This document shows, piece by piece, positions 2,192 to 58,564 of a DNA stretch of 64,000 nt. The notes beneath the pieces are model-generated. The model was not told the origin of the DNA. It saw only the letters and a program-made list of their open reading frames with translations, and made no database searches. Origin of the DNA: an uncultured Candidatus Saccharibacteria bacterium (GTDB lineage: Bacteria; Patescibacteriota; Minisyncoccia; Phycocordibacterales; DATDWN01); the NCBI GenBank assembly GCA_964603545.1, contig CAZRVD010000003.1:4945-68944 (forward strand), in the 5' to 3' direction. Position 1 is the stretch's first letter; every line of letters starts with the position of its first letter. The translations under genes were made by a program, and so were the position numbers.

Positions 2192-4000
2192 TTATGATTT
2201 TTGTTTACTTAACCATATTTTATATTTATTTGCCATATCTTCAAAACTTATACTGTTACTAGCAATCTCGTCTTTACCATGAACCATATATATTATTGCA
2301 TTCAAATCAACTTTTTTACGTGAACTTTTTACTGCTTTTGCTTTTGAAATTCTACTTTTAGCTCTTTTTAATATCTCAGGAAGTTTTAGTGTTACATTTC
2401 TAATATATGGATCAGCACTTAGCTTTTTGCCAGTAGATATTTTGACTAGTTCATTGAATGTCCTTGAACCTGCTAGTTTCCAGACTTTTGCCATATCTTC
2501 TCCAACTTTTGGGTTGTCTACTATATATCCATACTTTTCAAAGAAATACTCTCTCCATTGTGTTAAGGCTAGAGTTGCGAGTCCGTAACCGTGGTAGGAT
2601 CCTGATGATTCCCAAGAGTAAATATGCGGAACATTCAAAGCCCCCAATGATTCTTCTGATCTTACATAGTACTTTTTAAAATTTGCTTTTGCTATATCCA
2701 AAACTTTTTTTTCTGTAAGATTTTTTGTCTCATATATTTCTTTTTCAAAATTTGCCACAAAAATAATTCCATTTAGTCCAAGAGGTCTAACTGTGTAAGT
2801 TTTTTTAACAATTCTTTCATAAAGATCAAATGGATAGGACTCACCTTTTGAATTTACTGCATATTTAGCTTCCCACTCAGGACTAGAAAACACTGTATCT
2901 AAAAACATGCTTTGGGTTTCAGCCCAAGAAGTAGACATGGGATAATACTCATGATTTACGCAAACATCGACTTGTTCAGAGTTTAAAAGATGTGCGGCAT
3001 GCCCCCCTTCATGAAATAAAGTATGAATTCCTTGAGTACCAGAACCGATTTGATCGGGCACTACATTGCAAGTAAAGTTAGTTGAACCCGCTAATCTTTT
3101 ACCGTTTTCATATTTAACTAGTCCTGGCCAGTGGCAAAAACCATTGCTGTATTTTCCTTTTCTATCTAACAAGTCTAATCTCAATGTGCCGTTTCTAAAA
3201 TCTATTCCCATTCGGCTAAATGATAAACCCCATCTCAACAGAGCATCGCTGAATTGGAAATACTGGTCTTCTTCTTTTGCAAAACTTCCGGACATCATAA
3301 AACTAAAGTTCCAAGGTTTAGTTATGCCCGGCGTCTCGGTTTCAAGTTTTACCACTTCTTTCATTGCGTATTTAGTTTTTATATGAATCTTATCAAAAAT
3401 AGTAAAGAGCTCCTTTTTTGTCATTCCATCTTCTTTTCTAACTTTAAAATCATAAAAATCACTGTACCCGATAGTTTTAGCGTACTTGTTTCTTAGTTTT
3501 ACTACTTTTATGTAATCTTTTACTAAATATGTTGCTAGTTTTTCTTTTGCCTTAAAACAAGCTTCTCTGACTTTTTCATCAGGATCAGTGTATGTCATTG
3601 TAGACATCTTATTAATTGACGCTTTTACGAATTTTTTTGTATTCGGATCAACATAGCCTTCTTTTCTCGTAGCAAGTTTCTTATGTAAAAAATCTTCAAG
3701 TTTATCGATTTCTTTTTTAATTCCTCTTGCTTTGTCGGGTATTTGATAACCTTCAAAAAATTTTAACCATGTGTTTAGTCTTGTTACTTCTTCTTTATTT
3801 GCGCCTTTCAACAACTCTTTGATTTTTTTTGTATACCTTGAGTCTGATCTAAAAGCATCTCTTTTTGCTAGTGCATCAGCCTTCTTTTTATTAACTGAGT
3901 GGTCTCCCATATATGATAACCAAAAATAGTCTTCATAATTTTTATGCAGTTCAAAATACTTATTGTTTAATTCTTCCAAATATTCAGTCGCTTTGCTCAT
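2192..4000 (-). CDS. M3-family zinc metallopeptidase (oligoendopeptidase F-like)
   Basis: HEGGH zinc-binding motif ([13 protein letters not shown]) in a ~600-aa protein, in the position and length typical of PepF-like M3B peptidases. Confidence 0.55.
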
Positions 4001-5265: not shown

Positions 5266-6111
5266 TTAAAGTGATTCTATTTCCTCTATGACTTTTTGTG
5301 ATTTTGAACTGTTAAGTCCGATAGTAATAAGTAAATCCGGATTAAGTAAGATTGTTTTACATAGTACCACTCCTTTATCCAATAGCTCTTTTTTCTCTCT
5401 TCCGTTTAGACTAAGCAGGCAGGTTAATGGATGTAGTTTGGACTCCAGTATCATATCGTGCAAGTTTCCTACTGGTGGGTAATTCCAACCTATCATCCGT
5501 AGTCCACCCTGGCAAGAGCCGTACTCTATAGCGGTTGAGGTAAATTTGGTATTGGTGACTAACCAACCTTCATCAAGATTTCTCTCCTTACCATATCTAA
5601 AAGTCATTTTCCTCAAATCATCAAAACGAGCTTTCACATATAAAGCAATCTTTAGATCAGATTTTATACCAAGTTCATTGTGAAATTTTGCTTCAACCAT
5701 GATTAATTTTTCGTCATTCCAAGCCACCACATCTACCTCATGCTCAACACAAAAACCTCTAACTATTTTACCAGTTTCTGCTTTAAAGCCTTTTTGTCTA
5801 AATATTTCAGCCACAAAGTCCTCAAAGGGAAATCCAGACGGCCCAAGTTCCATTATTGCCCTTTTCAATGAATACTTTAAGGCTATTGGCTTTTCTGCTT
5901 TCTCTAGAAGCTCAAATGCGTGTTTATACAAATCATGAGTTGTAACTTCGTGATTTGTATGAGATTTTATATGAGACTTTGTATGCTCTACTATATCTTG
6001 TACAGACCGGCTGGAAGCCCCGGCCTTTTTAAGTGATCTCTCTAGTTTATCAATATCAAATAGTTCTTTTGTTCCGTCCGCTTTTATTACATAGATTTGT
6101 TCATTTACCAT
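5266..6111 (-). CDS. ATP-cone domain protein fused to a restriction-endonuclease-like (Mrr-cat-like) C-terminal domain
   Basis: N-terminus IYVIKADGTKELFDIDKLERSLKKAG is an ATP-cone signature. The C-terminal half has a D...E.K-like core (VDVVAWNDEKLIMVEAKF). Confidence 0.5.
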   Translation of the reverse strand: MVNEQIYVIKADGTKELFDIDKLERSLKKAGASSRSVQDIVEHTKSHIKSHTNHEVTTHDLYKHAFELLEKAEKPIALKYSLKRAIMELGPSGFPFEDFVAEIFRQKGFKAETGKIVRGFCVEHEVDVVAWNDEKLIMVEAKFHNELGIKSDLKIALYVKARFDDLRKMTFRYGKERNLDEGWLVTNTKFTSTAIEYGSCQGGLRMIGWNYPPVGNLHDMILESKLHPLTCLLSLNGREKKELLDKGVVLCKTILLNPDLLITIGLNSSKSQKVIEEIESL

Positions 6112-6140
6112 TCAATCATTATCTCATACTTGAAAATCAA

Positions 6141-7238
6141 TTAAAATATACTTTCGATCACTCCACCACCAAGACATACTTCATCTGTATAAAAAACGGC
6201 AGACTGTCCTACGGATATGGCATTTTGTGGTTCGGCAAAGGCAATTTCATAAAAATCACCTCCTTTGTTTATTATGCAATTTCTTTTTTCTTGTCTATAT
6301 CTAATACGAACCGAAGTTTGTAGTGGAAGTTTTGGTACAATTTCAGAAACAAAATGAAAATCTTTTATAATAATACCTTTAATATTATCAATATTTTCTA
6401 TCTCCAGTTCCTTACTAGCAACCGTAATTGTATTTTTCTCTAAATCCTTTTTGACAACAAAAAACCTCGGGTCTTCTGCAGATTTTTTTGTAATAGTGAA
6501 TCCGTGTCTTTGTCCTATTGTTAGAAACTGTGCTCCGTCGTGGTATCCGATCATTTCTCCATCTGTGTTAAGCACATCTCCTTTTTTTACTTCAATGTAA
6601 TGAGAAAGAAATTCCTTAATATCAATATTACCCATAAAACATAGCCCCTGGCTGTCTTTTTTGTTCGCAGTAGATAGACCAAACTCCTGTGCAAGTTTTC
6701 TTACTTCTGGTTTTGTAAGATGTCCTACAGGAAAAAGGGTACGACTTAACTGATCTTGGTCTAATGTGTATAGAAAGTAACTTTGATCTTTCTCTTTATC
6801 TCTTGATTCTCTCAATTCGTAAACATTCGTATTGTTTTCGCTCTTATATTCGTATCTTATTGCATAGTGTCCTGTTGCGATAAAATCTGCCCCCATTTCA
6901 AGTGCCTTTTGTAAAAAAACTCCAAATTTTACATATTTATTGCAAAAAATATCTGGATTCGGCACTCTACCCCCCTTGTATTCACGTATCATATAGTCCA
7001 CTACCTCTTTTTTGTACTCCTTTTCACAATCAATAGTTATAAAAGGTACATTTAGAGTCGCGCAAACCCGCATGGCAGATAATCTCTCTTCTTTCCAGTC
7101 ACAAGGCATAAAATCTGGATACCAAACCTTCAAAAACACACCCGTTACATCATAACCTTGCTGTTTCAGTAACGCCAAAGCCACAGAAGAGTCTACTCCT
7201 CCCGAAACCCCCACAAAAACTTTCTTCCTTTTAGTCAT
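6141..7238 (-). CDS. mnmA: tRNA-specific 2-thiouridylase MnmA
   Basis: PP-loop VGVSGGVDSSVA, conserved Cys, typical length and C-terminal domain. Confidence 0.9.
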   Translation of the reverse strand: MTKRKKVFVGVSGGVDSSVALALLKQQGYDVTGVFLKVWYPDFMPCDWKEERLSAMRVCATLNVPFITIDCEKEYKKEVVDYMIREYKGGRVPNPDIFCNKYVKFGVFLQKALEMGADFIATGHYAIRYEYKSENNTNVYELRESRDKEKDQSYFLYTLDQDQLSRTLFPVGHLTKPEVRKLAQEFGLSTANKKDSQGLCFMGNIDIKEFLSHYIEVKKGDVLNTDGEMIGYHDGAQFLTIGQRHGFTITKKSAEDPRFFVVKKDLEKNTITVASKELEIENIDNIKGIIIKDFHFVSEIVPKLPLQTSVRIRYRQEKRNCIINKGGDFYEIAFAEPQNAISVGQSAVFYTDEVCLGGGVIESIF

Positions 7239-51495: not shown

Positions 51496-52012
51496 CTGTT
51501 TCTTTTTTATTTTTCAACTTACGAATCTCCGCCACTATCTTTCCTATTTCATCAACAATAATCACAAGCGCCGGAATTCCAACAAGGAGTGCAAAACCCA
51601 TGGGTTTTTTAGCAAAGTCTAAGACAAAACCTAAATAAGGAAGTGTGAAAACTACTTTGCCACTTATGTCACTTAGCCTTATTGGTGTTTGGTCTTCTGC
51701 ATCATTGGCATCCCCTTTTGTTGTAAATGTCCGAAGTGGTCCTGTGCCATCTATTTTCACAATACGATGGGTTGTAGGAATTTGGTCTTTCGTGTCCTTA
51801 CCAAAGGTCACCACATCATTTACCTCGTATGAACTAGACGGTCTTAGAACCACAACCCCGCCTGTTTTTATGTATGGCTCCATAGAACCAGACTTCACCA
51901 CTTTTATTTTGAAGTTGCCAGGGGTAGGCACTAGTGTTACCAGAAGTAACAAAGCAATAGCCACTATCCCCGCAACAAAAGTGTAGTAGATAAGATTGAG
52001 AAAGAATTTCAT
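51449..52012 (-). CDS. sipW: Signal peptidase I, SipW (archaeal-type, S26B) family
   Basis: N-terminal TM then VVKSGSMEPYIKTGGVVVLRP; a second TM at the C-terminus. Confidence 0.8.
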   Translation of the reverse strand: MKFFLNLIYYTFVAGIVAIALLLLVTLVPTPGNFKIKVVKSGSMEPYIKTGGVVVLRPSSSYEVNDVVTFGKDTKDQIPTTHRIVKIDGTGPLRTFTTKGDANDAEDQTPIRLSDISGKVVFTLPYLGFVLDFAKKPMGFALLVGIPALVIIVDEIGKIVAEIRKLKNKKETDAEQIEQRNISIPRS

Positions 52013-52030
52013 TTAGCTTTATTTACTCAG

Positions 52031-53392
52031 TTAGTTTTTAGCGTTAGTTATTGTACAAGTAATAGCTTCGCCTTCGTTTAGAACTATAGGAGTACTGGTA
52101 CTAGCTGGACATCCCACTCCAGTAATAGAGACAAAATGATAACCCACTCTACCTGTTTCGTTTATAAGATGTGGTGTGTTGGAAGTAACAGCAATAGATG
52201 CGCCCGTTGGAACTCCTACACCATCAACTCTTAGACCAAACAATGTGTTTGAGGCAAGTGGTGGAGTACCGGTTACGACTTTTATTAGAGTAATGTGTGC
52301 TGGAAGCTCTGTGTTTGTTATAACACAAGACTTCAGCTCATTTGCTCCAACATTTATATTCCCTTCAAAGTCACAATCCCCACTAAATGTAGCTTGATAT
52401 CCGTTTGAGCCAGCTTCACTTATGTTGTACAAACCTACTGGAACAGTTGTTGTTGCTCCAGAAGAAACTTCTGTAGAAACAAAACCATCATCAATAAAGT
52501 AATGGAAGTCTGTCACGGTATTGTTTCCGCCATTATTGTTTACAACAACTTTTGTTACAACAATTTTACCCATCTGTTGCACTACTGGTGGGACACATAG
52601 GAAATTTGGATTGTGCCTAGACTGAACCGCAGAAAACTTTACATCCGCAGTCAAACTATCTGTTTGAGTTGAATTGTTTAAGTTTGAGCCATCACAGACA
52701 ATACCTCCACTTGAGTTAGCTGGGGTTCTAGGTGAGGTAGAACCTAGTCCGTCTTGCACAAGTGCAGATTGACTAAGATTCCCAAAACACCATGCTTTGC
52801 CTATGTACAAAGTCTGTTCTCCAGGAACTGGCCCAGGAACTCCTGTCCATATGTTTGTACTGGAATCTGCTAGAGCCACAGTTGTTGAACCATTTAAACC
52901 AAGTGCCCCTATAGGTCCTTGAGAAATAACGTCCTCGTCATTCTCTAGAACATTATCCCCATCATCAGCCCACCATACGAAATTCACATTACTAGCAAGT
53001 TCGCCGTTTCCGGGACCATCACTAGCATCAACTTCTGCTTCCGGTTCATTTATTCCGTTATCATCATTTGAAGTCAGCTTAACGTTGGCACAAAGATATG
53101 AATCATTGTTGTCTACATGAAGAGAGATCGTGTCTTCTCCTAGATCTCCAGGTTTAACATCTGGAAAATCAAAAAACTTTTGAATAGTTAAGTCCGCCAT
53201 TTCCCATGTCGTACTAGCATTCAAAAATCCGTTGTAGTAGCTGTGATTGTCTATCATTAGGTCTATAGCTCCAGCAGTAAAAGTGTTTCCACTCGACAGT
53301 TCTCTGTCAGAGAAAAACGCACCTGTTCCACCTAGAACTAAGGCCGAACCAACAAACAAGATTAGAGCTGAACTTAGTAATATTCTTTTCAT
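52031..53392 (-). CDS. TasA/camelysin-like secreted protein with SipW-cognate signal peptide, paralog 1 (453 aa)
   Basis: MKRILLSSALILFVGSALVLGGTGAFFSDRELSSGNTFTAGAIDL. Confidence 0.7.
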   Translation of the reverse strand: MKRILLSSALILFVGSALVLGGTGAFFSDRELSSGNTFTAGAIDLMIDNHSYYNGFLNASTTWEMADLTIQKFFDFPDVKPGDLGEDTISLHVDNNDSYLCANVKLTSNDDNGINEPEAEVDASDGPGNGELASNVNFVWWADDGDNVLENDEDVISQGPIGALGLNGSTTVALADSSTNIWTGVPGPVPGEQTLYIGKAWCFGNLSQSALVQDGLGSTSPRTPANSSGGIVCDGSNLNNSTQTDSLTADVKFSAVQSRHNPNFLCVPPVVQQMGKIVVTKVVVNNNGGNNTVTDFHYFIDDGFVSTEVSSGATTTVPVGLYNISEAGSNGYQATFSGDCDFEGNINVGANELKSCVITNTELPAHITLIKVVTGTPPLASNTLFGLRVDGVGVPTGASIAVTSNTPHLINETGRVGYHFVSITGVGCPASTSTPIVLNEGEAITCTITNAKN

Positions 53393-53407
53393 TCCGTTTT
53401 CTGTTTA

Positions 53408-53443
53408 CCCCCGAACTAATTTTAGTAAATTCAGTTCTGGGGG
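53408..53443. repeat. Hairpin element CCCCCGAACTaattttagtaaattcAGTTCTGGGGG, copy 1
   Basis: Near-identical copies at 54905-54940 and 56793-56830; split copy at 56453-56471 / 56731-56749. Confidence 0.8.
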
Positions 53444-53459
53444 TGGATAATAATTTTAC

Positions 53460-54896
53460 CTAGTTAAGTGGACAATTTTCTGGAATAACAAACTGACCAA
53501 CCAAAGTTGAGTAAGCTGTGTTTGTTCCAGGATAAGCCCCGTTAAACATCGATATGACTTGTGCTTGGCTGTAAGGGAAGTCCAAACTGCCTGCGTTGAG
53601 TAGTGCTACCACCGTCTCTCTTCCAAGCTGATTTAATCCCCCACCACCCAGTTGCAAAACTTGTAACAAAGTTTTACCAGGAAAAGCGTTGTCGAAGACA
53701 GAAGAGTATAGTTGGTTCGGTGAGTAACCAGACCAGCTGTCAAAATGTTGACTTGCCTTCCAGTAACCATGTGAACAGTACTGGTTATTTTCTTCCTCAA
53801 CTTTAAGTTTATTTACAACTATAAATGTTTCTGTGGGATCATTAACAATAACTCCTAGACCCCCCGCGCCCGAAACATGTTCCCAGCCTTCCTGTAACAC
53901 CTCACTTATCTCATGAGTACCATAAGACACGCCAGTGAAAGCAACACAGCCATTTTGCAGAGTTACTCCAGAGTAATCCTCAATATTACCCGGTAGACCA
54001 TCATTTAAATTCAAGGTCCAACCAGAAAGAGGTTTACCTGTTTCATCTGTTTTACACAAAGTTACAGTTGATTTGTCTTCTTCTTCGTCATTTCCACAAA
54101 TAAACCCATCGTTACCCCTAGATTGAATCACAGAGAAAGTGACATCGGCTTTTACGCCGTCACTTTGAACTATGTTTCCTATTTCTTCACCTTCGCATTT
54201 AAAACCAGTTCCTCTTACTAGAGGTCCGTTGTTACCTGTTTTACCTAAACCATCTTGAGTTACTGGATAGTCCTGCATATCGCCAAAGCACCAGGCTTTA
54301 CCAATATACCTGACAGAATTTCCAATAAGCGGGTCATCACCTCCCCAAATGTTTCCATTTGAGTCAGCGATAGCCCAATTTTCTCCATTCCAAATATCTT
54401 TTACCAAACCTTTTTTGAATATTTTTTCTCCTATCTCATAAACATTATCTCCGTCGTCTGCCCAGAATTTGAAATACAATTTGTCTTGTAACTCACCACT
54501 GTTTTCTCCGGTGGTTACGTCCACAAGACTTTCTGGTTCATTCTGACCATTCTCTGGAGTGGCAGTAAGCAGTATATTCATACACGCCCAAGCATTGTTA
54601 TTGTTTACGTGAAGTGAAATAGTATCCTCTCCAATATCTCCTGGCTTTATATCAAGAAAGTTAAAGAAAAACTTACCCGCAAGCGGAGAAAGTTCCCAAG
54701 AAGTGGATGTGCTGTAAACCAGCTTGCCCCACTCGTTTGTTATATAACTTTCGTTGTCGATTTTTAGGTCGATAACCCCTGTGGCAAAAGTATTACCTGT
54801 GGACTTTTCTGTATCGGAGAGGTATGCTCCTGTACCAGTGGCCAGGATTGCTCCAGCAAAGATTATGGAAGTTATACTTAATAGTATTTTTTTCAT
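53460..54896 (-). CDS. TasA/camelysin-like secreted protein, paralog 2 (479 aa from MKKILLSITS)
   Basis: MKKILLSITSIIFAGAILATGTGAYLSDTEKSTGNTFATGVIDL. The longer ORF to 55007 reads through the upstream hairpin element. Confidence 0.7.
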   Translation of the reverse strand: MKKILLSITSIIFAGAILATGTGAYLSDTEKSTGNTFATGVIDLKIDNESYITNEWGKLVYSTSTSWELSPLAGKFFFNFLDIKPGDIGEDTISLHVNNNNAWACMNILLTATPENGQNEPESLVDVTTGENSGELQDKLYFKFWADDGDNVYEIGEKIFKKGLVKDIWNGENWAIADSNGNIWGGDDPLIGNSVRYIGKAWCFGDMQDYPVTQDGLGKTGNNGPLVRGTGFKCEGEEIGNIVQSDGVKADVTFSVIQSRGNDGFICGNDEEEDKSTVTLCKTDETGKPLSGWTLNLNDGLPGNIEDYSGVTLQNGCVAFTGVSYGTHEISEVLQEGWEHVSGAGGLGVIVNDPTETFIVVNKLKVEEENNQYCSHGYWKASQHFDSWSGYSPNQLYSSVFDNAFPGKTLLQVLQLGGGGLNQLGRETVVALLNAGSLDFPYSQAQVISMFNGAYPGTNTAYSTLVGQFVIPENCPLN

Positions 54897-54904
54897 TTTT
54901 TCTT

Positions 54905-54940
54905 GCCCCCGAACTAATTTTAATAAATTCAGTTCTGGGG
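54905..54940. repeat. Hairpin element, copy 2
   Basis: CCCCCGAACTAATTTTAATAAATTCAGTTCTGGGGG. Confidence 0.8.
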
Positions 54941-55051
54941 GTAACTTTCTAACCCACTTTCTTTGTTTGGTTGCGAAGCACGACTCTAGAGAGTTATGCC
55001 CCGCCACCTACAAAGATTAATGAGTTAGGAAAATTTTAGTTTAGAGTTCTA

Positions 55052-56434
55052 CTAATCAAATGTATTTGTAACAGTACATGTGATTGTATCCCCTGGGGTC
55101 AAAACAACTGATCCTGGGAAAGATGCTGGGCAAGAAACCCCCAAGAAGGATGTTCCTGTAACTGATGTTTGAGAATAACCAGCCACCAAAACTTCTTCGT
55201 CAAGTTCATGTGAAGCATTTGCGCTAACACCATTAGAAGATCCTGAAGTTACAATTCCACTATCGATTGATAGATCAAAGTCGTCTGGAGCAGATTCTCC
55301 CCCAACAACATTTTTAATTAAAGTAACTACTGGTTGAATATCATCATTAGTTATAGTACAGCTAGCAGCTCCCCCGGCTGGAACATTCACAGTTCCGTCT
55401 GATGCACAATCTCCACTAAATGTAGCAGAGTAACCAAACAGACCAGATTCACTCACTGTATGAAGACCAGCACTTGTTGTTGTCGCTACACCAGATGAAA
55501 TAGACATTGAATCAACAAAGAGTGGAAAGCCACCAACTACAGCTGTTCCACCATTATCATTTGTTACAACCTTAGTAACTGTAAGAGTTCCTGTTGTTGG
55601 CTCACCTTGTCTTTGTACACACTGGAAGTTTCCATTGTTTCTAGACTGAACAGCTCTGAAAGCAACGTTTGCTGTCAAACTGTCTGTTTGTGCAGTATTG
55701 CCAACTTGTGAACCATCACAAGTAAATCCTGTTCCAACTGTAAGAGGACTTCGTCCTACATCTGCGCCATTGTCTTGAGCAACTGGGTTTGGCGTAATTG
55801 TTCCAAAGCACCATGCTTTACCAACGTACCTTACAGATGCTCCTGGTACTGGACCACCTTGTAATGTCCAAATGTTATAAACAGAGTCAGCTAGTGTAAC
55901 AGTTGTTGTTGCACCTATTGCAAGAGCTCCTAAAGGACCGCCTTGTAGCAGGTTCTCCCCTGTTTCCAAAACGTTGTCTCCATCGTCAGCCCACCAAGCA
56001 AAGTTTACTTGCTGTGCTAGTTCACCTCCGTTTGGATCATTTGTTATATCTCCATCTTCTGCTTCTGGCTCAACAAGAGTGTTTTCATTGTTAGATGTAA
56101 GTGTTACATCAGCACAAAGGTATGAATCGTTGTTGTCCACGTGTAGAGAGATAGTGTCTTCGCCAATGTCTCCAGGTTTTAAGTCACTGAAGTCAAAAAA
56201 CTTCTCAATTGTTAAATCTCTCATTGTCCAAGTTGTCCAAGGACTAGCTACAAGCTGTCCTGTAGATGTACTTGTAACATAACTCGTATTATCTATCTGC
56301 AAATCAATAGCTCCAGCAGCCAAAACATTGCCTACTGAAGTTTCACTATCACTGAAAAAAGCTCCTGTTGCTGTTATAGCCATCGCCGCAACAAAAACAA
56401 CCACTCCTAAACTCATTAATATTTTTCTATTCAT
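55052..56434 (-). CDS. TasA/camelysin-like secreted protein, paralog 3 (460 aa)
   Basis: MNRKILMSLGVVVFVAAMAITATGAFFSDSETSVGNVLAAGAIDL. Confidence 0.7.
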   Translation of the reverse strand: MNRKILMSLGVVVFVAAMAITATGAFFSDSETSVGNVLAAGAIDLQIDNTSYVTSTSTGQLVASPWTTWTMRDLTIEKFFDFSDLKPGDIGEDTISLHVDNNDSYLCADVTLTSNNENTLVEPEAEDGDITNDPNGGELAQQVNFAWWADDGDNVLETGENLLQGGPLGALAIGATTTVTLADSVYNIWTLQGGPVPGASVRYVGKAWCFGTITPNPVAQDNGADVGRSPLTVGTGFTCDGSQVGNTAQTDSLTANVAFRAVQSRNNGNFQCVQRQGEPTTGTLTVTKVVTNDNGGTAVVGGFPLFVDSMSISSGVATTTSAGLHTVSESGLFGYSATFSGDCASDGTVNVPAGGAASCTITNDDIQPVVTLIKNVVGGESAPDDFDLSIDSGIVTSGSSNGVSANASHELDEEVLVAGYSQTSVTGTSFLGVSCPASFPGSVVLTPGDTITCTVTNTFD

Positions 56435-56452
56435 AATTAATTTTATTTTTTA

Positions 56453-56749
56453 CCCCCGAACTAATTAGGACTTAAGACTCTTACTTATCCTCCTTTTCAA
56501 ACCACCTAAAGACCTACCGTGCTCCTTGAGCATTTTCTCTCTATGTGTGGCGTCTTCCCTTAGTTTATATGCTTCGTAATATATCAACTCAAATGGCTTT
56601 CGTAATTTGGTTGATGTACTCTTACCCGAATTATGTTCTTCTATTCTCCTCTTGAGATTATTTGTGTATCCGGTGTAAAGATTTCCATCTTTCTCACTTT
56701 TTAAAATATACACATAGAACATAATTCAAAGTCCTAATTAGTTCGGGGG
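56453..56749 (-). mobile_element. GIY-YIG nuclease gene inserted into the loop of a hairpin element, bounded by 19-bp inverted repeats CCCCCGAACTAATTAGGAC
   Basis: Left arm 56453-56471, right arm (reverse complement) 56731-56749. The interior 56465-56722 encodes the GIY-YIG protein. Confidence 0.5.
56465..56722 (-). CDS. Small GIY-YIG domain nuclease (UPF0213/YhbQ-like, 85 aa)
   Basis: MFYVYILKSEKDGNLYTGYTNNLKRRIEEHNSGKS. Confidence 0.8.
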   Translation of the reverse strand: MFYVYILKSEKDGNLYTGYTNNLKRRIEEHNSGKSTSTKLRKPFELIYYEAYKLREDATHREKMLKEHGRSLGGLKRRISKSLKS

Positions 56750-56792
56750 TTGATTAATTTTTATAATACTTTTTATAATTTTGTTTACTTTA

Positions 56793-56830
56793 CCCCCGAA
56801 CTAAATTTTAATAAATTTCAGTTCAGGGGG
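56793..56830. repeat. Hairpin element, copy 3 (intact, upstream of the TasA-like array)
   Basis: CCCCCGAACTAAATTTTAATAAATTTCAGTTCAGGGGG. Confidence 0.75.
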
Positions 56831-57257
56831 TCGACCTTCTCTTCTCAAACTAAGCCCTTGGAATTCGCAAATAATTACAAAAACAAAAAGAGCTGTCTCT
56901 GTTGTAATATTAAAATTACTGCAGAGATAGCTCTTTTGCGTGTTCCAAGTGGTTTGTTTCAAGAAAAGTAACTAACATCTTTTCTAACTTACTTAAGAAC
57001 TAATTTATATCTTGATCTAAACCAAGATAAAGTTCATCGTATCACGCTGTTTTTTTATCAAAATAATAAATACTAAAAAAGTGTATAACTTGTGGAGAAC
57101 AAGTGTAAAACTCTACAAATATGAGTGAAAAAACGTGAAAATATAGTAAAATTTGACAAAATTTTAAAAAATTGAAAAACAAAAAATACCTTGACCAAAT
57201 TGAGATTTACAAAAAACTACACCATACTTGTGTAGCTTTTTGTAACCTATTGAGTAT

Positions 57258-57280
57258 TGTGCAACATCGGATGTTGCACA
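57258..57280. repeat. 23-bp palindrome TGTGCAACATCGGATGTTGCACA, copy b (8 nt past the stop of the 57289-57969 gene)
   Basis: Exact match to copies a and c. Confidence 0.8.
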
Positions 57281-57288
57281 GTAGAAAA

Positions 57289-57969
57289 CTATTGTGACAA
57301 AGTTGTGAAATTTCTTTCTGTACTCGTTGCACTGTTACCTCTTTCGTCAGTAATTTTTATCATGTAGTAGTATGTCGTGCTTGTGGAAAGGCCGGGAAGA
57401 TTTACAGAGTGTGTAAAGCTTAAATTATTTACAAAAAAATTTGCGGGTGAGGTAGAGGCTACTGGGGTGGTGTTGCTATACCAAAATTCTGACTTTACAT
57501 TTTTGTTTGCTGTCCAGAAAACATATCCTCGTGTTGGAGAATTGCTAGATGACTCAATTACAAACAACTGTGGTGTCACTATATAGTTGGTGGCCATTGC
57601 AAATAAGCTGTTTTTAGAAATTTTGTTCAGAAGTTCTCTAGTTTTTGGACCAACAATTCCGACTACCTCTAGGCCATTTTCCCCTTGTAGCTTCTTTATT
57701 GCCCGCTCTGTCAAAGTGCCAAAATAGCCCGTAATAAGGCCTTCTGGATATATGTTTGGCACCTTTGAAAGCTGTGACTGTAGAACCTTAACAGCATCCC
57801 CGCGTGAACCAAGCCGCAGACTAGGTGTAGGATTTGGCGGAGTATCCACCAAAGCCACCGTAGCCCCAGCCGTCTGCACTACAAAAAGCCCAGCCAAAAC
57901 CAAACCAAATATTGAAAAAGTTTTTTGTCTCATACTAAAATTATACCAATTTTCCACCAGAATAATCAA
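57289..57969 (-). CDS. Secreted protein with peptidoglycan-binding (PG_binding_1-like) domain and Ig/FN3-like C-terminal domain
   Basis: LRLGSRGDAVKVLQSQL...GYFGTLTERAIKKLQGENGL. Probable start at MRQKTFSIFGLVLAGLFVV, around 57933. Confidence 0.55.
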   Translation of the reverse strand: MIILVENWYNFSMRQKTFSIFGLVLAGLFVVQTAGATVALVDTPPNPTPSLRLGSRGDAVKVLQSQLSKVPNIYPEGLITGYFGTLTERAIKKLQGENGLEVVGIVGPKTRELLNKISKNSLFAMATNYIVTPQLFVIESSSNSPTRGYVFWTANKNVKSEFWYSNTTPVASTSPANFFVNNLSFTHSVNLPGLSTSTTYYYMIKITDERGNSATSTERNFTTLSQ

Positions 57970-58031
57970 TTTTAGACAAGACGATGGGGGCGCATCCCCC
58001 GAAGGAAATGCGCCCGTAGTACACGTCAGAT

Positions 58032-58439
58032 CTAGCCGACCTGGAAGGTCCTCATCAGGGTTTCCGAGGTCGCCGCCTCGAGGTCGCTTGCGAGAATCCT
58101 CGCCAGCATCGGATGCTCTCCGCTGACTGCGGTTCCACAGCTCTTCGGGATGACCCCGTCCACTGCCTCGTTCCGGTGTGGCATGACTGAGTACATGTAG
58201 AACCGAACCTGCGGATTGACCTGCTTTACCAGGCGGGCCAACTGCGAGCCCTCGATATGGCTGTCGAAGACCTGACCAGAGACCACGAACGCCGGAGAGC
58301 CATCCATCACAGCGTCCAGAACGGCTTCTGGAATACTGGTGAAGAGGATCTCCCGGGATCTCGCAGGATCGATCTTGGCAACCCCCTCCTTGATTCCGAG
58401 CAGATTCTCGCGATGACGCTGAGCCACGATGATCTTCAT
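58032..58439 (-). CDS. G+C-rich foreign hypothetical protein (136 aa)
   Basis: AAGGGAGGG SD before MKIIVAQ. GGGCGCATcccccgaaggaaATGCGCCC hairpin downstream at 57988-58015. No confident family assignment. Confidence 0.4.
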   Translation of the reverse strand: MKIIVAQRHRENLLGIKEGVAKIDPARSREILFTSIPEAVLDAVMDGSPAFVVSGQVFDSHIEGSQLARLVKQVNPQVRFYMYSVMPHRNEAVDGVIPKSCGTAVSGEHPMLARILASDLEAATSETLMRTFQVG

Positions 58440-58564
58440 ATGCCCTCCCTTGGGTAGAAACAACGAACAGAAATCCTGAACCTTATGACATTATACACCC
58501 GTTTACTATTATTGTCAAATACAATTTTAGTACTAAAACAACCTTACTTATACGACCAAAATTA

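Follow-up and report, generated by a model that had tools for sequence, protein, structure and literature searches.

A GIY-YIG nuclease gene enclosed by inverted repeats upstream of a TasA-like gene in an uncultured Saccharibacteria bacterium, and its relatives across bacterial phyla

The nuclease gene and the hairpins at the TasA-like locus

The DNA analysed here, hereafter the window, is a 64,000-nt stretch of contig CAZRVD010000003.1 (positions 4,945 to 68,944; assembly GCA_964603545.1) from an uncultured Candidatus Saccharibacteria bacterium. On its minus strand a small gene for a GIY-YIG nuclease lies between two inverted repeats, directly upstream of the third of three tandem genes for TasA-like proteins, and short hairpins without an open reading frame (ORF) are found nearby (Table 1). 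A preliminary description of the sequence had reported a GIY-YIG gene nested between the arms of a hairpin; this is borne out, and at 22 nt the arms are longer than first reported. The arms at 56452-56473 and 56729-56750 are complementary at 22 of 22 positions (100%) and form terminal inverted repeats (TIRs). The 22-mer occurs in the window at these two sites only, and no match was seen in any of 100 shuffles. Read along the minus strand, a terminator-like hairpin (56886-56937), a short hairpin (56830-56793) and a 42-nt A/T-rich spacer are followed by the 5' arm (56750-56729), the ORF (56722-56465), the 3' arm (56473-56452), a further 18 nt and the ATG of the TasA-like gene at 56434. The ATG of the nuclease gene stands 6 nt past the end of the 5' arm, and the 3' arm overlaps the stop codon and the last two codons of the ORF. 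The 64-kb window holds no other GIY-YIG gene and no hairpin copies beyond those of Table 1.

Table 1. Features of the nuclease unit and of its ORF-less copies. Positions are those of the window.
Feature	Position	Strand	Sequence or remark	Basis
Complete unit	56452..56750	-	5' arm, 6-nt leader, GIY-YIG ORF, 3' arm; 299 nt	
5' TIR arm	56729..56750	-	sense strand ACCCCCGAACTAATTAGGACTT; contains Shine-Dalgarno-like AGGA	arm search and covariation
3' TIR arm	56452..56473	-	sense strand AAGTCCTAATTAGTTCGGGGGT	arm search and covariation
GIY-YIG nuclease gene, stand-alone SLX1/UPF0213 type	56465..56722	-	85 aa	Pfam PF01541, profile search
Start-codon segment	56716..56727	-	GAAUUAUGUUCU	pairs with 56628-56639
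Internal segment	56628..56639	-	AGAACAUAAUUC; codons E-E-H-N-S	complementary to start region
ORF-less hairpin A	53408..53443	-	15 nt upstream of TasA-like paralog 1 ATG (53392)	fold and motif
ORF-less hairpin B	54906..54941	-	9 nt upstream of TasA-like paralog 2 ATG (54896)	fold and motif
ORF-less hairpin C	56793..56830	-	42 nt upstream of the unit, separate copy	fold and motif
TasA-like/SipW-type signal-peptide protein, paralog 3	55052..56434	-	directly downstream of the unit, co-oriented	conserved adjacency in relatives
ORF-less copy in L035			ATCCCCACACCTATG / CATAGGTGTGGGG	
ORF-less copy in L080			CCCCCCACCAATTTTGTTTCCAA...	
ORF-less copy in L081			119-nt mini with ATCCCGTACGAAAT ends	
ORF-less copies in L028			three	
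ORF-less copies in L019			several	

The protein matched Pfam PF01541 with E=1e-18 and 67.8 bits, against a curated cut-off of 22.6, and the residues Y5, Y16, G18, R26, H30 and E62 are invariant in 28 homologues. Its nearest relatives of solved structure are the UPF0213 proteins BH0048 (PDB 1zg2, E=4e-13) and EF2693 (1ywl, 2e-9), followed by SLX1 (6e-4 to 1e-2); PHROGs and NCBIfam searches gave no informative family. The catalytic domain (residues 1-71) covers the 85 aa with no separate DNA-binding domain, and no Asn follows E62, which places the protein in the Slx1/UPF0213 branch and not in the branch of UvrC and the homing endonucleases (HEases). Comparison with relatives that are also linked to TasA-like genes gave a ratio of nonsynonymous to synonymous divergence (dN/dS) of 0.07-0.12, with dS saturated (0.56 to >2). 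Together these values imply that the protein is maintained by purifying selection, and, with synonymous sites saturated, the conservation of the arms far exceeds the neutral expectation. Within the gene, the start-codon region GAAUUAUGUUCU and the E-E-H-N-S codons AGAACAUAAUUC are complementary over a perfect 12 bp. Of 84 family members, 18 have complementarity of at least 9 nt to the start region, including untranslated leader bases, whereas a control region gives 1 of 84. These counts suggest that an inner stem may occlude the start codon and exert tight translational control.

When folded as RNA, the whole unit reaches -94.1 kcal/mol compared with -55.4 for shuffled sequences (z -9.0); its ends pair, and a perfect 22-bp stem is predicted from the arms. 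Several simpler identities were considered and set aside. The shuffles, the motif counts and the family controls described below rule out a chance origin of the repeats. An Rfam search of 51500-58500 at E<=1 found no group I or group II intron and returned only spurious sub-threshold matches, which rules out a known RNA family or intron. Consensus scans for a promoter or terminator of the unit's own did no better than on shuffled sequences.

Hairpins A-C are 36-38 nt long, contain no ORF and read CCCCC[A/T]GAACT-loop-AGTTCGGGGG on the minus strand. A and B have the form CCCCC-A-GAACT-G-AATTT / AAATT-AGTTC-GGGGG, with 15 bp, two bulges and a 4-nt loop. The kinship between arms and short hairpins that had been noted at the outset holds: the outer 14 nt of the arms are common to all three, the arms run 8 nt further, and the shared ACCCCCGAACTAAT(T) gives the hairpins ends like those of miniature inverted-repeat transposable elements (MITEs). 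The recurrence of the hairpin before the TasA-like paralogs likewise stands, with A and B in front of two of them and the filled unit in front of the third. The motif CCCCCGAACT, allowing one mismatch, has 10 matches in the window where 1.8 are expected. As single-stranded DNA the hairpins fold at -11 to -13 kcal/mol (z -5.3 to -6.7). A and B are identical at 35 of 36 positions, although no alignment is possible between their flanks and the neighbouring paralog proteins share only 47% identity. Just upstream of hairpin A there is a possible promoter -10 element; promoter scores there are no better than those of shuffled sequences.

Relatives of the unit and the sites they occupy

To place the unit among its relatives we refer to individual loci by L numbers. 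Nuclease relatives at 82-88% protein identity are found upstream of a TasA-like gene, in the same orientation, in L083, L084, L086, L089-L097 and L135/L136, so that the same site is filled in at least five lineages; TasA-like orthologues close to that of the window are rare, the best being 57-66% identical. The preliminary description would have been undermined by relatives that hold the gene here with no flanking repeats; L083, L084, L086, L089-97 and L135 all have inverted repeats around it. Their arms differ from those of the window at no more than four positions, with matching changes in the two arms (in L084, ACCCCCGCACTAATCAAGACTT on both sides). Among six TasA-linked copies, 7 of the 22 arm pairs have changed on both sides with 97% of cells still paired, a result equalled by 0 of 500 shuffles. 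The best orthologue of the site, L135 (Minisyncoccia GCA_049296815.1, 4700-5000), has arms and a downstream leader identical to those of the window; its nuclease gene is a frameshifted pseudogene, with residues 1-51 and 55-85 in different frames, between intact arms, and no short hairpins stand beside its TasA-like paralogs. L133 (57% protein identity) and L134, which are more distant TasA-like clusters, have neither the nuclease gene nor hairpins. The comparison of alleles that had been called for thus yielded filled copies at the same site and an empty site in L133; the near-identical empty allele was not found.

A hairpin equivalent to C is also present upstream of the unit in L086 and L089-97. 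The preliminary description had read hairpin C (56793-56830) as a duplication made around the insertion. This is ruled out by the relatives, where the same tandem arrangement has differing arm sequences: in L089 and its relatives the equivalent of C has GAACT arms and the nuclease unit GCACT arms. Hairpin C is instead a separate copy. A scan of metagenomes for the hairpin pattern, limited to GAACT arms and so no measure of the abundance of other arm types, found one to four tandem hairpins upstream of TasA-like genes in L099, L102, L111 and L115. At the orthologous loci L099 and L102 the flanks are about 90% identical, and the hairpins differ in number and kind. Full 22-nt arms around loops of 18-30 nt form minis in L102 and L086, and a decayed mini in L115 retains the final codons of the GIY-YIG ORF beside its right arm. 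Besides the window, cognate ORF-less hairpins or minis were found within 3 kb of the gene in five further loci (L019, L028, L035, L080 and L081), and the arms of these gene-less copies match the local unit rather than the family consensus.

We then considered the family as a whole. Species-representative genomes scanned with an alignment of homologues gave at least 600 matching stretches, of which 560 encode a relative; 80 loci with 85 homologous genes (53-78% protein identity) were kept as the survey sample. These loci are phylogenetically related, and the counts below are not independent, though arms and contexts vary widely; many of the genomes are metagenome bins, and some of the taxonomic labels are doubtful. 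Hosts include many classes of Patescibacteria, Omnitrophota, Planctomycetia, Elusimicrobia, Margulisiibacteriota and others, with about 60% protein identity across them. For each gene the 120 nt upstream were compared with the sequence surrounding and following the stop codon, and the best ungapped inverted repeat was taken. Scores of at least 13 were obtained for 56 of the 85 genes and of at least 16 for 39; the controls gave 1 of 425 with shuffled partners and 2 of 324 when positions within the same loci were displaced. Units are about 275-320 nt long and their arms 13-26 nt, near-perfect and opening with a C-run, as in (A)CCCCCACACC, GCCCCTCAC, CCCCCCACCAC and AACCCGCACAC; the inner parts vary by lineage, and the part best conserved across phyla and in unrelated contexts is the outer C-run plus ACAC. 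Between the end of the upstream arm and the ATG lie 0-28 nt, and in some copies this arm takes in ATGTTT; the downstream arm overlaps or adjoins the stop codon. The two arms of a unit agree by Watson-Crick pairing at 95% of positions (1055/1106). The idea of a mini selfish unit, with which the analysis began, is supported. UPF0213 homologues from phage and viral contigs (50-53% identical) have no flanking repeats, so the repeats are not a general property of small GIY-YIG genes; as these repeat-less genes are all that viral contigs gave, carriage of the unit by phage is ruled out. Copy number in the data seen is low, at one to three per genome, and L005 and L067 each hold two divergent copies with differing arms.

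Many units show signs of insertion. Direct repeats outside the arms measure at least 5 nt in 27 of 55 units and at least 7 nt in 14 of 55, against 4.9% and 1.3%, respectively, in a null built from mismatched left and right flanks. Their length is not uniform. Away from tRNA genes they are generally 4-6 nt and A/T-rich (CATAA on both sides in L052, for example), and at tRNA genes they reach 7-12 nt. In 24 of 77 loci the ORF is followed within about 100 nt by the start of a tRNA gene, co-oriented in 21 and opposite in three. In such units the terminal G-run supplies the 5' end of the tRNA, and a second copy of the first 9-12 nt of the tRNA stands beyond the opposite end of the unit (GGGCCCGTAG in L006, GGGCGGCTAG in L030, GGGCCGTTAG in L039); these repeats can be described either as a 7-nt duplication with a coincident G-run or as a duplication of 9-12 nt. 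Units of the GCCCCTCAC subfamily stand right before tRNA-Ala, Val or Trp genes in L006, L022, L030, L039, L042, L054, L066, L067 and L074 (around locus positions 2960-3300), and in L004, L018 and L040 the 3' end of a tRNA-His or tRNA-Ile gene in opposite orientation shows the same geometry. L074 has two identical tandem units before tRNA-Ala (1832-2426) with the same 9-12-nt direct repeat between them, giving three repeat copies; the tandem could be a true duplication or an assembly artefact.

Other structured RNA genes are also occupied. In L003 (2973-3272) a full-length match to RNase P RNA is broken by a 291-nt insert in the loop of a short helix, and in L026 and L056 the unit adjoins AGGAAAGUCC (also AGGAAAGTCC), which corresponds to the position of helix P3 of RNase P RNA. 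In L009 the unit (2961-3273) occupies a helix tip of 23S rRNA (model positions 1205-1226); we take this helix to be helix 45, the classical site of intervening sequences. In the RNase P RNA and 23S rRNA inserts the C-run and G-run of the arms align to the native helix. Such positions at helix tips fit both insertion into hairpin loops and survival only at tolerated sites. Co-oriented ORFs start within 60 nt downstream of the unit in modest excess (15 of 33, compared with 114 of 458). The host start codon follows the right-arm G-run by 0-6 nt in L005, L014, L020, L029, L048, L072 and L081, and the right arm may supply or mask the ribosome-binding site of the downstream host gene.

A proposed hairpin-bounded element and its alternatives

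We consider it reasonably probable, from comparison of these sequences, that 56452-56750 represents one member of a widespread family of minimal selfish elements bounded by hairpins, and that hairpins A-C are its ORF-less derivatives. On this best reading the element belongs to the kind represented by rRNA intervening sequences, and its mechanism of mobility is a proposal drawn from the comparisons. As the upstream arm ends 0-28 nt before the ATG there appears to be no room for a promoter of the unit's own, and expression would need read-through from outside. Such dependence fits the co-orientation with rRNA, RNase P RNA, tRNA and TasA-like genes and the excess of co-oriented ORF starts downstream, and the unit would persist where it shares the orientation of strongly transcribed host genes, here in the leader of a surface-protein gene. 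In the transcript the arms would pair, closing the insert into a stem-loop and leaving the host RNA contiguous; a perfect stem of two helical turns would be a plausible substrate for RNase III, as in rRNA intervening sequences. At the DNA level the ends, being palindromic, could form an extruded hairpin or cruciform, the class of substrate on which SLX1-type enzymes act. Nucleases of this type are structure-specific and cut branched and stem-loop DNA. We propose that the encoded nuclease cuts the extruded ends, or a target, and so moves or copies the ORF-less hairpins, in trans, as well as the full unit.

The direction of events is indicated by several observations. Minis that keep the terminal codons of the GIY-YIG gene, as in L115, together with the intermediate forms show that full units give rise to hairpins. 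The hairpins of the window are most likely ORF-less derivatives, in which the arm tips are joined by a short loop, and not a pre-existing hairpin of the host: arms recur in unrelated contexts, the direct repeats lie outside the arms, the arms reach 8 nt past the shared part and the 3' arm overlaps the stop codon, and the L115 mini and the L133 and L135 loci point the same way. The comparisons further indicate that the nuclease unit of the window is an old, vertically inherited insertion and not a recent jump, with a later and ongoing turnover of ORF-less copies. The gene may also re-insert into ORF-less hairpins, homing by arm homology.

A number of observations weigh against this proposal. 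No movement of a unit has been captured, all the evidence being comparative; we know of no GIY-YIG protein that acts as a transposase, and 85 aa leave no room for a DNA-binding domain. The unit of the window has no clean target-site duplication (TCAA versus TAAA), and none flanks hairpins A, B and C, which also do not show the dispersed multi-copy spread of MITEs: in the 64 kb scanned all lie within 3.5 kb, at the TasA-like genes. A near-identical empty allele of the TasA locus was not found, the best orthologue being 57-66% identical. Synteny with TasA-like genes across lineages whose dS is saturated implies long-term stability. In the survey, 29 of the 85 homologues have no clear repeat, and the copy number is low, as noted above. 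Arm mismatches on the sense strand comprise 13 G-U and 18 A-C, with no G-U bias, so that pairing in RNA alone fails to explain the conservation of the arms; some constraint on them would then act on DNA or on both strands.

The preliminary description had proposed that the gene entered a local hairpin already in place. In its most explicit form this would make a host hairpin of C-run and G-run the target and a smaller core, the nuclease gene with an inner repeat AGGACTT/AAGTCCT, the invader of its loop, possibly by homing from filled to empty sites. CCCC(N)GAACT hairpins do precede TasA-like genes lacking an intact nuclease gene in L099, L102, L111 and L115. The inserts in RNase P RNA and 23S rRNA sit exactly in the loop of a native helix with their C-run and G-run aligned, and the consensus P3 helix of RNase P is itself a C-run, a loop and a G-run. 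We nevertheless regard this origin as unlikely. The repeats travel with the gene family into tRNA leaders, RNase P RNA and 23S rRNA, and their outer C-run plus ACAC is the part most conserved across phyla, in unrelated contexts. The direct repeats lie outside the arms, and the arms of L005, L051 and L070 include the ATG and first Phe codon of the gene, so that they cannot be host-derived. The minis with 3' codons of the nuclease gene point from full unit to hairpin, L135 has a unit without hairpins and the TasA-like paralogs of L133 have no hairpin; the helix-tip sites may simply be the insertions that survived.

It might instead be supposed that nothing here is mobile today, and that the gene is an ordinary or domesticated host nuclease for repair or RNA processing. 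The repeats would then serve its expression, as an end-to-end stem in the mRNA, an RNase III site or a means of autoregulation, and the hairpins would stabilise or regulate leaders. The strong purifying selection, the long-kept position upstream of TasA-like genes, the single copy in this genome and the conserved inner stem over the start codon all fit this, as does a 2006 survey that saw prokaryotic Slx1-like proteins as vertically inherited (PMC1564403). The possible -10 element would make hairpin A a 5'-terminal stem, though its score is no better than that of shuffled sequences. We judge a host function improbable as a full account since it leaves unexplained the inserts in 23S rRNA and RNase P RNA, the partial tRNA duplications, the tandem copies of L074, the divergent copies with different arms in L005 and L067, the L135 pseudogene between intact arms, the hairpin turnover between L099 and L102, and the roughly 60% protein identity across Patescibacteria, Omnitrophota, Planctomycetia, Elusimicrobia and Margulisiibacteriota. 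An intron-like element acting at the RNA level, excised as a double-stranded RNA stem by the GIY-YIG protein or by RNase III and spread through an RNA or hairpin intermediate, seems to us very improbable: the arms show no tolerance of G-U pairs, no reverse transcriptase or ligase is linked to the unit, Rfam gives no intron or other family, and three of the tRNA-adjacent copies are oppositely oriented. It would account for the co-orientation with host RNA genes, the helix-tip positions and the 22-bp stem, and Slx1-like domains fused to the tRNA methyltransferase TrmH have been read as a hint of work on RNA (PMC1564403).

Returning to the selfish element, a bolder form of the proposal is that a bare 85-aa SLX1/UPF0213-type nuclease itself mobilises a hairpin DNA element. 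This would be the smallest autonomous element of prokaryotes (about 290 bp) and a new enzymatic class of transposon, with ORF-less derivatives as the source of at least some rRNA intervening sequences and of hairpins in leaders that resemble repetitive extragenic palindromic (REP) sequences. We put this forward tentatively, as a possibility that is rather doubtful at present. To our knowledge, the origin and spread of rRNA intervening sequences and of REP-like leader hairpins are unexplained.

Relation to known systems and further observations

Intervening sequences of 23S rRNA occur in helices 25 and 45, are excised by RNase III without religation, and in some cases contain an ORF. Like them, the units described here are self-contained inverted-repeat inserts that extend a stem at a helix tip, in L009 that of a 23S rRNA helix, are distributed sporadically across lineages and have short ORF-less forms. 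They differ in that the copy in the window lies in an mRNA leader and not at a 23S intervening-sequence site, and others lie in RNase P RNA and at tRNA 5' ends, and in that the ORF of the rRNA elements encodes a four-helix 23S_rRNA_IVP protein and here a GIY-YIG nuclease. The closest published observation concerns the rRNA genes of the candidate phyla radiation (CPR), where Tsurumaki et al. (2024, PMC11270868) describe non-intron insertion sequences with GIY-YIG ORFs at several scattered sites, place them 'outside the context of homing' and credit the identification of these ORFs to an earlier report. The phyla and the kind of protein are the same, there is likewise no group I or group II intron, and the sites are sparse and variable; the parts of the paper that were searched mention no inverted repeats, direct repeats, ORF-less cognates or sites outside rRNA. 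In the open-access literature searched we found no description of inverted repeats around these GIY-YIG genes, PMC11270868 being the nearest, and the hairpin-bounded unit looks not to have been described before in that literature.

The architecture recalls that of REP sequences and REP-associated tyrosine transposases (RAYTs), or REPtrons, in which dispersed intergenic palindromic hairpins accompany one nuclease gene between two inverted copies and the hairpins match the local arms. RAYTs are HUH/Y1 enzymes of about 150-300 aa and REPs number in the hundreds, whereas the gene here is a GIY-YIG gene and not an HUH Y1 transposase gene, with few copies per locus, so that the likeness is architectural only. 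With TIR transposons and MITEs the units share terminal inverted repeats, direct repeats in about half of cases and ORF-less internal deletions with the same ends. They differ in having an enzyme that is neither a DDE nor a serine or tyrosine transposase, direct repeats of varying length and a size of about 290 bp, far short of the roughly 700 bp of the smallest insertion sequences. Free-standing GIY-YIG homing endonucleases, such as phage T4 Seg proteins (SegB within a tRNA cluster), are also intron-free genes beside conserved RNA genes. However, Seg and I-TevI are enzymes of the UvrC/HEase branch with a long DNA-binding domain, whereas here there is a bare Slx1-type domain without a sequence-specific DNA-binding domain; inverted repeats do not bound homing endonuclease genes, and the present unit consists of ORF and arms with no intron around it. 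The closest proteins, UPF0213/bacterial Slx1-like and eukaryotic SLX1, are the nearest relatives with solved structures and share the minimal domain without the C-terminal Asn. They differ in being treated as repair factors, the prokaryotic ones as vertically inherited repair genes in the 2006 superfamily survey (PMC1564403), and the phage UPF0213 homologues tested have no flanking repeats.

Annotations of a great many genomes include small stand-alone GIY-YIG (UPF0213/Slx1-like) genes. The scan of species representatives, with at least 560 loci, indicates that a large subfamily of them is a package of nuclease and terminal inverted repeats that invades tRNA leaders, RNase P RNA, 23S rRNA and the leaders of highly expressed mRNAs and sheds gene-less hairpins. 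If the nuclease does mobilise the hairpin, this would be a new minimal type of transposon and would offer a concrete origin for rRNA intervening sequences and for some intergenic palindromic repeats. It would also explain why GIY-YIG genes have been predicted to be among those passed from Patescibacteria to other bacteria (PMC12455944). Annotators should note that a short C-run hairpin in front of a surface-protein gene is not necessarily a regulatory site.

Some further features of the locus and of its relatives were recorded. The three tandem TasA-like/SipW-type signal-peptide paralogs occupy 52031-56434 and are 43-47% identical over their N-terminal 270-340 residues; their C-terminal SpaA-like domains are divergent, and a sigma-70 gene lies downstream. 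On the minus strand at 56886-56937 a 26-bp imperfect hairpin is followed by a T-run (with a spurious sub-threshold match to the Rfam family mir-17). It is probably the terminator of the upstream gene for a peptidoglycan-binding protein (57289-57969), and similar terminators precede the TasA-like clusters of L133 and L135. In several lineages, leaders upstream of TasA-like genes contain a short motif with GGTCG, seen as ataaaggtcgataag in L099/L102, ggtcggt in L133/L135 and AAGGTCGA in the window, where it occupies 56831-56838 on the minus strand and hairpin C begins directly after it.

Two further palindromes were also observed. A CCCCGAACTAAAT...ATTTAGTTCGGGG core sits inside a longer perfect palindrome, GGCGGCCCCATTTCCA...TGGAAATGGGGCCGCC, in the five contigs L101, L103, L105, L107 and L109, from the OMLO01 and Ga0126337 sets. 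On the minus strand of L071 (about 5771-6185) a distant GIY-YIG homologue (37% identity) is bracketed by two direct copies of a 32-nt palindrome, CGCCTTCGCTACGCTGAAGCGTAGCTACGGCG, each preceded by an apparent tRNA 3' end, an architecture that differs from that of the hairpin-bounded unit.

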